Positions 4,192 to 34,902 of a stretch of 39,245 bases of DNA are shown piece by piece. How positions within the stretch are numbered: position 1 is the stretch's first letter; each line of letters opens with the position of its first letter. The stretch is taken from IMG/VR virus record IMGVR_UViG_2558860161_000002. One strand, 5' to 3'. Origin of the DNA: a virus (Duplodnaviria > Heunggongvirae > Uroviricota > Caudoviricetes). Below the pieces are notes generated by a model that was not told the DNA's origin, did no database searches, and saw only the letters and a program-made list of their open reading frames with translations. The translations under genes were made by a program, and so were the position numbers.

Positions 4192-4767
4192 CTACGGCAG
4201 TGCTGGCCATTCAATATCCTGTGCAGTTGACGTATCAACACGGTTCAGCAATACCCGATACTTTTTCCATGCTTCCAGCAACGAGATTTCTTCCTCCGTT
4301 GCAATTTCCAGATCTGCAGCATCCTGAAGCGGCGCAATATGCTCACTGGCTACCTGCATCAGGCTGTTTTTTGTTTCTTCCGCCTCCCGGATCCGGAACA
4401 GTTTTTCTGCTTCCGTATCCTTCACCCAGGCTGTGCCGTTCCACTTCTGATATTCCCCTCCCGGCGATAACCAGGTAACATTTTCCGGTAACGGACCGAG
4501 TTCAGAAATAAATAACGCGTCGCCGGAAGCCACGTCATAAACCGTTTTACCCCGATGATCTTCAACGAGATGCCACGATGCCTCATCACTGTTGAAAACA
4601 GCCACGAAGCCTGCCGGAATATCTGGCGGTGCAATATCGATACTGTTTGCTGGCAGACCTGTATGAGGCGGAATATATGCGTCACCTTCACCAATAAATT
4701 CATTAGTTCCGGCCAGCAGATTATAAATTTTTATGGTCCGTGGTTGTTCACTCATTCTGAATGCCAT
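4192..4767 (-). CDS. tfa: tail fiber assembly protein (lambda Tfa family)
   Basis: 191-aa [37 protein letters not shown]..., near-identical to remembered lambda Tfa; start overlaps stf stop. Confidence 0.9.
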
Positions 4768-32030: not shown

Positions 32031-32246
32031 TTACTCTCCTCTCGCAGCCTTACGCCTGTCTTCTTTAATCTTGAAATAAAGATTTGTCAGATACGTCAGC
32101 AGGCCAAAAACCAGGCTACCCAGCACACCGATTGCAGCCCACTGTGACGGAGTTACTTTATCGAGTAACTGCAATGCCCAGAAACCAGCATTACCCGCCG
32201 ATGTGCCATAGGCAACACCTGTTGTTAACTTATCCATTGATTTCAT
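32031..32246 (-). CDS. class II holin / pinholin (phage 21 S-like), 71 aa from [10 protein letters not shown]
   Basis: two hydrophobic helices ([42 protein letters not shown]) and a charged C-terminus, immediately upstream of the endolysin. Confidence 0.8.
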
Positions 32247-32718: not shown

Positions 32719-32999
32719 GAGATTGTGGTGCTTTTTGTGGGAGTCATCCACTTACGCACTTTGTTTTGCCATGCCAGCAGTTAGCTTCTGCTGTAAAACT
32801 ATTCATGCAGCAAACCTGCACTTCACCACAATGGTTAGCATACTTTTCCTGATTAAGATTTTGCCAAATATGCTAGCCATTGTTTCATGTATTGGACCTC
32901 CTTACTTTTTATTAAAGAGATCCAATATTCACTACTCTGTCCGTATCTCTACTCAGGCATCAGCCTTCTTCGTTATCGTATACAGACGAGCGATGAATT

Positions 33000-33215
33000 T
33001 TAATCAGTAATGATGACATTTGCTGCTGCAGGACCTTTAGCACCACTCTCTATAGAGAAGGTAACCTTTTGACCTTCAAATAAGGTTCGATAATTATCAT
33101 TCTGAATCGCAGAAAAATGCACAAACACATCTTTACTACCATCAACAGGAGAAATAAAGCCGAAACCTTTATCAGCGTTAAACCATTTTACTAAACCAGT
33201 CATTTTATTTGACAT
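33000..33215 (-). CDS. cspB: cold-shock protein (CspA family), 71 aa
   Basis: [74 protein letters not shown]. Confidence 0.9.
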
Positions 33216-33515
33216 TCTACATTCCTTAACTTGAGCCTTTCGGCATAAATGGTTTGCATAACAGAAACGACTTCGTACTTAATTGGAGAGACTCAAAGAA
33301 GGAATAAGTGAATAACACCTGAAATGAGAACTGCTTTAGTAAACTACTTCGTATATCGTCTGTTCTTCAAACCGACGCAATCATTAACGCATAGTTGAAC
33401 ATATGAAGCAATGTTTATTTTAGACATCCAGCCATCTTCAACCCCATCAAAAAACTATAGCTTTCTTCAGGAACGTGTGTATAGTGCGCCAAGTTATCAG
33501 TATTAAGGAATTTTT

Positions 33516-33728
33516 TTGTCCCGTAAAATGACAGGAATTGTCAAAACCTTTGACGGCAAAAGCGGCAAGGGTCTTATCACCCCATCCGATGGTCGTATCG
33601 ATGTCCAGCTTCATGTCTCAGCGCTCAATCTCCGCGATGCAGAAGAAATTACCACCGGATTACGCGTGGAATTTTGCCGGATAAATGGTCTGCGTGGCCC
33701 TTCAGCTGCCAATGTTTACCTTTCATGA
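33516..33728 (+). CDS. cspF: cold-shock protein paralog (CspA family), 70 aa, apparent TTG start
   Basis: ORF (M)[69 protein letters not shown]. Confidence 0.8.
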
Positions 33729-34020
33729 GCTATATTAAAGCTTTAATTTCAGGCCCCATCGGATCACACATGGAGAGTTTTTATGAATAACCCCGTCTGT
33801 CTTGATGACTGGTTGATTGGCTTTAAAAGCTTATGCTGTACTTTGGCCGTAATAGCTCTGCTAATAATATAATAAGCAGACTCATTGTGTTTAGGGACAT
33901 TGTACTGGAAGAAAACATTTTAAACATCAGGCAAATAACCAAGTCACCAGCTAAATAATAAGTTAACAGACATGAGTCCCGGGATGAGATTCAACATTAC
34001 CATTGCCCCATTTAAAGCAC

Positions 34021-34044
34021 AAAACCCGCTCATCAGCGGGTTTT
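34021..34044 (-). terminator. tR'-like terminator about 40 nt downstream of the putative late promoter
   Basis: aaaacccgct-catc-agcgggtttt hairpin; read on the minus strand it follows the pR'-like promoter. Confidence 0.5.
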
Positions 34045-34089
34045 CTACTTTTTCTTAACGTCGGGTATACAAAGCCCATCGTTGAAAAA

Positions 34090-34118
34090 ATTTTATCCAT
34101 ATTTTTTGAAAAATGCAA
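34090..34118 (-). promoter_or_regulatory. pR'-like sigma-70 late promoter immediately downstream of Q (expected site of Q action)
   Basis: minus-strand TTGCAT (-35; plus 34113..34118), 17-nt spacer, TAAAAT (-10; plus 34090..34095). Confidence 0.6.
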
Positions 34119-34149
34119 ACATCATGTCGCCATCTTCAGCAAAAATCAT

Positions 34150-34902
34150 TTATCTCGTCACCTTCCTCAATTGCGCTTCCGCGTATGCTTCTTCCTGCCA
34201 GCACTTTGTTACCAGTTTACCAATGACGTCCGCATACCCCTTATACCACTGATAATCGGTCAGGTCTGGTACCAGCTTCTGGACATGACGTCGTGCCAGC
34301 GTGGTCGGTAAACGACTAAACCGGTTTCCATTACAACGCCCACAAATCTTATATACCGGTACGCCATGAAACCGGGTTCTTTTTTCATCCAGAACAATCC
34401 CTTTACCCTTACACCCTCTGCACGCTGTGCTGGCTTCGCCCTTACCATGGCAATGCTGACATAGTTCCTTCACCCATTCTTCCTTGATTACAGATTCCCC
34501 GCGTCTGTAGTGTTTCACCACTTCGCGCAATACATTATAAAATCCCGTACCTGAACAATGCTCACAGCGAGCCTTACTTGCCGCAGACCTGGAGTAATCA
34601 GCAAAGGCAAAACTCACGAGGTAAGGAATAATCTGTAACCGGATTTCTTCACTCAATTTGTTCAATGTCGGGTTATCCAGTGCCATCGCGTAATTTAGCA
34701 GGCCTTCAATCGCAAACTGAGGGTCCTGAACACCAACTTTTGCCAGAAATAAGGCCAACCCAAGTGGTGCTTTCGACTGCACCATCCCCTGCGCTGCCAT
34801 TACATCCGTAATTGTTAAACAACCGGTGCCTGTCGCTGGAGCGTCATCGCTCAATTTTGGAGATTTTGGGGAGTAATATTTTGGTAAGGCTTCAAGGTTC
34901 AT
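34150..34902 (-). CDS. quuQ: late-gene antitermination protein Q (lambdoid Q family with Cys-rich zinc-binding motifs), 250 aa from MNLEALPKYY
   Basis: ORF with CxxC...CxxC clusters (CEHCSGTG, CQHCHGKG, CRGCKGKG, CGRCNG); directly upstream of the pR'-like promoter. Confidence 0.8.
   Translation of the reverse strand: MNLEALPKYYSPKSPKLSDDAPATGTGCLTITDVMAAQGMVQSKAPLGLALFLAKVGVQDPQFAIEGLLNYAMALDNPTLNKLSEEIRLQIIPYLVSFAFADYSRSAASKARCEHCSGTGFYNVLREVVKHYRRGESVIKEEWVKELCQHCHGKGEASTACRGCKGKGIVLDEKRTRFHGVPVYKICGRCNGNRFSRLPTTLARRHVQKLVPDLTDYQWYKGYADVIGKLVTKCWQEEAYAEAQLRKVTR

Follow-up and report, generated by a model that had tools for sequence, protein, structure and literature searches.

A close and well-described counterpart of the locus considered here is the late switch of phage lambda, built from the antiterminator Q, the promoter PR' and the terminator tR'. 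There sigma70 rebinds the sequence AACGAT (+1 to +6) together with a discriminator-like GGG triplet, and a pause at +16 is needed for Q loading (PMC4005639, PMC9388147); sigma region 4 docks at a -35-like TTGACT against the tip of the Q arm (PMC9388147). Among Q proteins, Q-lambda belongs to Pfam family PF03589, Q21 to PF06530 and Q82 to PF06323 (Yin et al., PMC9388147). Termination at Q-controlled late promoters can also yield small RNAs (sRNAs), namely IsrK of Gifsy-1 (PMC4825925) and StxS, for which RNase E processing of a 258-nucleotide (nt) leader has been described (PMC7547250). The locus in question lies in IMG/VR record IMGVR_UViG_2558860161_000002, a Caudoviricetes sequence of 39,245 nt that is called the window below and is numbered from its first base. 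The 1,251 bases around it are 100% identical to the Qin prophage of Escherichia coli K-12 MG1655, and about 2,470 of 5,426 complete E. coli genomes have a match to this segment. On its minus strand the gene quuQ (ydfT), a promoter PR'(Qin) and a hairpin tR'(Qin) follow one another as a cassette that is very probably the late-gene switch of Qin, of lambda type and with a Q protein of a long-arm subfamily.

An earlier note on this DNA had seen in it the classic arrangement of Q gene, late promoter and terminator, a view that the family of the Q protein, a pause element shared with lambda PR' and a conserved tR' all support. The parts of the cassette are as follows.

34150..34902, minus strand: quuQ (ydfT), 250 amino acids, ATG at 34902 and stop at 34150; RefSeq label ydfT antitermination protein
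34113..34118, minus strand: -35 hexamer TTGCAT of PR'(Qin), invariant in 22 distinct relatives and equal to the annotated -35 of phi80 pR'
34096..34112, minus strand: 17-nt spacer with a putative Q-binding element, at a position matching the phi80 protein_bind feature and near-invariant in QuuQ-type cassettes
34090..34095, minus strand: -10 hexamer TAAAAT of PR'(Qin); most relatives have TAAGAT
34075..34083, minus strand: predicted +1 (A34083) and sigma70-dependent pause element AACGATGGG, with AACGAT at +1 to +6 and GGG at +7 to +9
34057..34060, minus strand: CGTT at +24 to +27, complement of AACG at +1 to +4 (34080-34083), closing a 5'-terminal stem-loop predicted by folding
34021..34044, minus strand: intrinsic terminator tR'(Qin), AAAACCCGCT-GATG-AGCGGGTTTT; its homologue carries a terminator annotation in SfV and Ayreon
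34017..34083, minus strand: predicted 67-nt PR' leader RNA, with a 3' end mapped by Term-seq and a 5' end placed from sequence

The Q protein and the late promoter

By family membership QuuQ is a true antiterminator of the Q-lambda family, as had been claimed for the gene at 34150-34902 (-), and antitermination activity would be expected of it on that ground. It scores 181.3 bits against PF03589 (E = 3.6e-54; cut-off 26.7) and matches the solved Q-lambda, chain Q of PDB 7UBM, at E = 4.6e-36; the Pfam profile search reported only PF03589 and DnaJ_CXXCXGXG, with no match to Q21 (PF06530) or Q82 (PF06323). Residues 1-120 and 160-250 align to lambda Q 1-125 and 117-207, and the alignment to 7UBM spans the N-terminal RNA-exit nozzle/torus segment, the helix-turn-helix body and the C-terminus. 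Substitution of lambda Q G39, L202 or T206 abolishes antitermination (PMC9388147), and all three residues are conserved in QuuQ, as G39, L245 and T249. The zinc cysteines are likewise kept, with C161, C164, C187 and C190 standing for lambda C118, C121, C144 and C147. An insertion of about 43 amino acids relative to lambda Q carries two extra CxxCxGxG motifs (C113/C116 and C148/C151), giving four of them at residues ~113-190 against two in lambda Q. The arm scores above the threshold of the Pfam DnaJ_CXXCXGXG (central-domain) profile, at 35.4 bits, and its four motifs suggest an extended arm that would hold two zinc ions. In the protein alignment the long arm is common to phi80 gp17, Gifsy-2 Q, SfV Q and others.

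The promoter PR'(Qin) lies 32-60 nt past the quuQ stop codon, with TTGCAT, a 17-nt spacer and TAAAAT all present on the minus strand directly downstream of Q, as first noticed. The hexamers alone prove little, because in DNA this rich in A+T promoter-like matches are no more frequent than chance allows (7 found, 4.1 +/- 2.0 expected); a promoter scan favoured TTTGCA with an 18-nt spacer (9/12), and AACGATGGG alone arises by chance in 32 of 100 window shuffles. The significance of the cassette comes instead from its conservation and its positional identity with lambda PR'. AACGATGGG starts 6 nt after the -10, and the same 9-mer occupies +1 to +9 of lambda PR' at the same spacing, so that from -10 to +9 Qin reads TAAAAT-N6-AACGATGGG and lambda reads TAAATT-TGACTC-AACGATGGG. 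The lambda 9-mer starts at coordinate 44,587, which we take to be the 5' end of 6S RNA. Because of this identity and spacing, A34083 is placed at +1 and is the most likely start of transcription, one base from the start at 34082 that had been supposed. The Qin and lambda spacers are identical at 11 of 17 positions, and a TGG just before the -10 (34099-34097) is common to Qin, lambda and phi80. The spacer sequence TTTCAAA (34111-34105) coincides in position with the Q site annotated in phi80, a placement from which binding of QuuQ is predicted. The -10 itself is TAAAAT in K-12 Qin and its nearest relatives and TAAGAT or TAGGAT in most other QuuQ-type cassettes, which implies that the Qin promoter may be stronger than average.

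Conservation outlines the same elements. Phages SfV, mEp460, Ayreon and the Stx2c/Stx2k phages share about 90% DNA identity with the locus, and their alignments end at query base 930, that is, at window position 34021, where the terminator has its final T. Across 22 distinct QuuQ-type cassettes the segment from the -35 to +9 is almost invariant, while the 3' end of the Q gene and the middle of the leader vary and the hairpin is kept with differing sequences. A wider sample of 171 Q-linked loci was assembled from 80 IMG/VR loci, 80 loci for which each species was represented by a single genome (Enterobacter, Kosakonia, Serratia, Edwardsiella, Klebsiella and others), and phage and MG1655 loci. 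Of these, 135 keep the promoter, the pause element and the hairpin, with AACGATGGG exact or at one mismatch no more than 220 nt after Q; they come from phages, from E. coli and from numerous Enterobacterales.

A further short motif recurs in the leaders. CGTT falls within +20 to +26 in 33 of 39 leader clusters (mean 1.8 and maximum 8 in shuffles); it is by far the commonest 4-mer of that interval, and none is found in the next one. The bases between AACG and CGTT vary among leaders, as does their spacing, and the exceptions include two with TGTT, which is wobble-compatible, and one AATGAT cassette with a compensatory TCAT. These counts use exact CGTT, since an earlier test of the stem that allowed G-U pairs was uninformative (shuffle probabilities 0.1-0.7). 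The pause element fixes the AACG side, so covariation of the stem cannot be assessed. From this enrichment, late transcripts of the Q-lambda family are predicted to begin with a stem; alternatively, CGTT might act at the DNA level, through an effect on scrunching and escape. In lambda, +17 to +36 is known to affect Q-dependent arrest (PMC4005639).

Terminator and predicted leader RNA

The core stem of tR'(Qin), CCCGCT/AGCGGG, occupies 34040-34025 (+44 to +59 from A34083) around a GATG loop and is followed by a U-run at 34024-34021; the minus-strand tail after the G+C core reads UUUUGUGC. In the alignment of relatives 92.7% of the cells of the helix are paired and 4 of its 10 pairs show changes on both sides, clearly above slid registers. 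The hairpin had been placed about 40 nt from the start, which fits the position of the core, and its reading as a terminator is supported by the compensatory changes and by an RNA 3' end that has been mapped just beyond it. This end, at U00096.3 1,642,356 (-), is classed as 'orphan' in a Term-seq dataset (Adams et al. 2021, supplementary file 1). It corresponds to C34017 (+67), because U00096.3 positions equal window positions plus 1,608,339, a conversion fixed by the agreement of the ynfS translation with its published sequence (PMC6001520). The sequence flanking the end is ...AAAACCCGCTGATGAGCGGGTTTTGTG-C. It lies 8 nt beyond the G+C stem and 4 nt outside the interval 34021-34902 that had been given for the cassette. 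The end occurs three times in the file, on the sheets for LB at optical density (OD) 0.4, LB at OD 2.0 and M63, with 103,591 reads at OD 0.4 and 55,368 at OD 2.0. On the OD 0.4 sheet it exceeds both the hokD end (44,933 reads) and the thrL attenuator end (4,852).

A leader of about 67 nt, never annotated, is evidently expressed in K-12, its origin at PR'(Qin) being deduced from the promoter sequence, and it appears to be abundant and constitutively made. With it, an abundant 'orphan' 3' end in the most thoroughly studied of bacteria is given an origin. As folded, the 67-nt RNA consists of a stem-loop at its 5' end, a linker rich in A (AAGAAAAAGUAGAAAA; AAG/AAA/AAG) and the terminator, with a minimum free energy of -26.2 kcal/mol (z = -5.6). 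A search of Rfam at gathering thresholds returned nothing at the leader; matches at a permissive E-value (Trp and Leu leaders, rnk, isrK) reflect a generic hairpin plus terminator and were dismissed as chance.

An AUG at +4, within the pause element, opens a 38-codon frame (33963-34080, -) that runs through the terminator. An overlapping 51-codon open reading frame is annotated as a coding sequence in PhiR42_1, and lambda and mEp237 have GGU UAA right after this AUG. The 38-codon frame is probably an annotation artefact and not a gene.

How the cassette may work, and other explanations

As a late switch, the cassette would operate in the following way. RNA polymerase with sigma70 would initiate at A34083, and sigma region 2 would rebind AACGAT and GGG within the first nine transcribed bases, pausing the enzyme at about +16. 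Without Q the polymerase would resume and stop at the hairpin and U-run, releasing a leader RNA of about 63-67 nt. When made, QuuQ would bind the site in the promoter spacer and load on the paused complex, converting it to a terminator-resistant form that passes tR', crosses ynfS and cspF in antisense and cspB in sense, and continues into the holin, endolysin and Rz genes. Start site, pause, Q binding and Q-dependent read-through are thus all predicted from sequence and from the likeness to lambda.

Several observations weigh against this scheme. The promoter had been called near-consensus, which suits the -10 (5/6) and not the -35, where TTGCAT is weak, agreeing with TTGACA in just 3 bases out of 6. 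The lambda-type -35-like TTGACT is lacking one base before the pause element, where Qin reads TTTTTT-C-AACGAT. TTTTCT or TTTTCC stands there in other QuuQ-type cassettes, and the TTGACT element is a lambda/P22-type feature that is not family-wide; its absence implies that Q loading may differ in detail from lambda, and long-arm Q proteins may load without lambda-type docking of sigma region 4. The hairpin, being A/T-flanked, also resembles a terminator on the plus strand, for cspF-ynfS; a terminator scan scored it on that strand only, because the scan extends the stem into the A/T tracts. In principle, the RNA end at 34017 could belong to a ydfU-quuQ message instead of a PR' leader. Finally, Qin is defective, with most late genes deleted, and K-12 may never produce QuuQ.

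Could the switch, then, be a relic? PR'(Qin) would still fire and terminate, QuuQ would never be made or would be inactive in K-12, and the leader would be a functionless by-product. Qin has lost its terminase, head and tail genes and retains lysis genes and morons, and a literature search on quuQ/ydfT and on a Qin small RNA found nothing on this promoter and no paper on quuQ function. Decay of this kind sits poorly with a QuuQ sequence that is 100% identical in the 48.7-kb PhiR42_1 genome and in dozens of IMG/VR prophage contigs, with the conservation of the residues needed for antitermination in lambda, and with the intact reading frames of the downstream lysis cassette. A relic state is a possibility to be kept in mind, although we consider it doubtful.

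The leader could, on the other hand, have been recruited as a trans-acting sRNA whose main role in the lysogen is post-transcriptional regulation of host or prophage genes. Its 3' end is abundant under three growth conditions, its build is sRNA-like (5' stem-loop, A-rich linker, terminator and U-tail; z = -5.6), and for PR' leaders that act as sRNAs there are precedents in StxS (PMC7547250), IsrK (PMC4825925) and the association of lambda 6S RNA with Hfq. However, the middle of the leader, where a seed would be expected, is its least conserved part among relatives, and the U-tail has only four residues (UUUU) before GUGC. The leader scores 16.6 bits against the Rfam isrK model (RF01394), far below the gathering threshold of 50; the model consensus lacks the AACGAUGGG start, and no sequence relationship was detected. 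Recruitment as an sRNA is improbable on this evidence. A broader proposal, that the leader is more than a by-product, acting as a trans sRNA, through a functional 5' AACG...CGUU stem, or both, is somewhat less so but still unlikely. The stem could be a functional element of such late transcripts, protecting the 5' end or tuning the Q-dependent escape from the pause.

It is very improbable that the hairpin only ends an early ydfU-quuQ message, a convergent cspF-ynfS message or both, with TTGCAT and TAAAAT there by chance and no leader starting at 34083: the number of promoter-like matches, the plus-strand score of the hairpin and the nature of Term-seq, which maps 3' ends only, would allow it, as would the lack of a match at U00096.3 ~1,642,422 (-) (~1,640,446 in version.2) among the transcription start sites of Cappable-seq, SMRT-Cappable-seq and the Kim 2012 supplements, whose texts were possibly incomplete, but the near-invariance of hexamers, spacer and AACGATGGG beside a varying Q 3' end and mid-leader, and a pause-element spacing equal to that of lambda, speak against chance; the tR' 3' end has a higher count than the upstream ends at 1644572 and 1645082, contrary to an early-message terminator; and no plus-strand Term-seq 3' end is reported at the hairpin (164238x-164239x), while cassette and hairpin are kept in phages without cspF.

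Neighbouring genes and known systems

The annotated order in Qin is relB, relE, hokD, rem, ydfU, ydfT (quuQ), ynfS, cspF, cspB, ynfU, holin, ydfR, rrrQ, rzpQ, cspI and onward. The features that late transcription would meet after tR'(Qin) are these.

33783..33872, plus strand: ynfS, a small protein of 29 amino acids (PMC6001520), antisense to late transcription
33516..33728, plus strand: cspF, antisense to late transcription
32984..33376, minus strand: cspB (coding sequence 33000-33215) with a cspA-type thermoregulator 5' untranslated region (Rfam RF01766, 158.8 bits), sense to late transcription
32031..32246, minus strand: holin essQ (RefSeq label essD; Pfam Phage_holin_2_1), first lysis gene on the antiterminated path

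The route to the holin is the one foreseen, antisense through cspF and sense through cspB, with ynfS and ynfU crossed in antisense as well according to the annotated gene order. Read-through had been expected to reach lysis and morphogenesis genes, and the first of these are indeed downstream, where ydfR, rrrQ and rzpQ come after essQ with intact frames. Morphogenesis genes are mostly deleted in Qin, and what is left downstream comprises just the lysis cassette, cold-shock morons and some remnants. The order Q, tR', cspF (antisense), cspB (sense), holin recurs in the phages 2H10 (classified Glaedevirus) and PhiR42_1, so the layout occurs also in deposited complete phage genomes. Induction of cspI, ynfQ and ynfN by azidothymidine (PMC11228462) was considered as a sign of Q read-through and set aside, because csp genes outside Qin respond alike.

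Other RNA ends and sequence features were seen around the cassette. A segment of about 257 bp with ynfS (window ~33718-33974) is missing from closely related prophages, where the sequence after CATCCCGGGA runs straight into the 3' end of cspF. A Term-seq 3' end at 33849 (-) (U00096.3 1642188; LB OD 2.0, 87,904 reads) is antisense to ynfS, about 170 nt past tR' and 8 nt past a hairpin TCTGCT...AGCAGA; it could come from read-through of tR' or from an unrecognised promoter, for example one with the TAAAAT at 33922-33917. Strong ends also lie at 33295 (-) in the cspB 5' untranslated region (U00096.3 1641634) and at 32887/32885 (-), 113-115 nt past cspB (U00096.3 1641226/1641224), the latter after a hairpin without U-run and with up to 1.2 million reads. 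Inside quuQ, a Rho-dependent 3' end antisense to ydfT maps to 34676 (+) (U00096.3 1643015; Adams et al.), and a plus-strand promoter-like TTCACC-18-TAAAAT is found at 34514-34543. By analogy, an antisense quuQ RNA may be an anti-Q RNA comparable to PaQ of lambda or P22. Rfam IS009 (RF02111, 221 bits) matches at window 4226-4424 (-), in the chromosomal part and unconnected with the late cassette.

The cassette is also found in toxin-encoding phages. In phiSTEC1575-Stx2k it lies about 2.3 kb upstream of stx2AB, at about 90% DNA and 94% protein identity, and 15 records of Stx2c phages also contain this Q/PR'/tR' segment. With such a cassette in these phages, its promoter strength, pause and terminator efficiency bear on toxin output.

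Comparison with lambda shows the same Q family, gene position, -10 to +1 spacing, AACGATGGG at +1 to +9 and CGTT near +20, and an intrinsic terminator placed before the lysis genes. In contrast, QuuQ is 43 amino acids longer, with a second CxxC pair in its arm; the -35 is TTGCAT and not TTGACT; the spacer with the putative Q-binding site is only 11/17 identical; and the -35-like TTGACT by the pause element is missing. Phi80 is the closest annotated relative. Its Q, gp17, is of the long-arm subfamily (36.5% identity to QuuQ over the full length), and its pR' has a TTGCAT -35, a 17-nt spacer, TGGA immediately before the -10 and a short leader, whose annotated terminator lies about 46-75 nt downstream of the inferred start. 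Its pause element is different (AACGCTGGG). In place of the TTTCAAA of Qin its annotated Q site reads TCGCGGA, which probably means a different DNA specificity. Guo and Roberts (2004) reportedly studied phi80 Q. P22 gene 23, HK633 and epsilon34 share with Qin the Q-lambda family, a pause element (AACGATGG), CGTT near +21 and a terminator ending near +60, and differ in a short Q of 207 amino acids and a lambda-type promoter and qut including a TTGAC -35-like element.

SfV, the Stx2c/Stx2k phages, mEp460 and Ayreon carry the same cassette as Qin, with 94% protein and ~90% DNA identity up to the last terminator T and a -10 of TAAGAT in place of TAAAAT. Beyond the terminator the DNA is not the same: SfV and Ayreon have a DNA methylase, the Stx phages transfer RNAs and stx2, and Qin cold-shock genes. 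StxS of the Stx phages and IsrK of Gifsy-1 resemble the Qin leader in their origin, as short RNAs produced constitutively from a late promoter in the lysogen and ended at tR' directly after the Q gene. The leader was rightly described as short compared with lambda (~67 nt against 194 nt), although its shortness is not unusual but the common state of the family, as in P22, phi80, SfV and Gifsy-2. The U-run starts at +48 to +67 in Gifsy-2, SfV, an Stx2a phage and most genomic loci, and long leaders are the exception, seen in lambda, Kapi1 and SF10, which makes the long 6S leader of lambda atypical within its own Q family. The textbook mechanism of the late switch is left unchanged: the arrangement was already known, and what Qin adds is an unannotated leader RNA and a K-12 example of the long-arm Q-lambda branch, whose differences from lambda in the -35-like element, the predicted second zinc module and the putative Q site are variations inside a known family.

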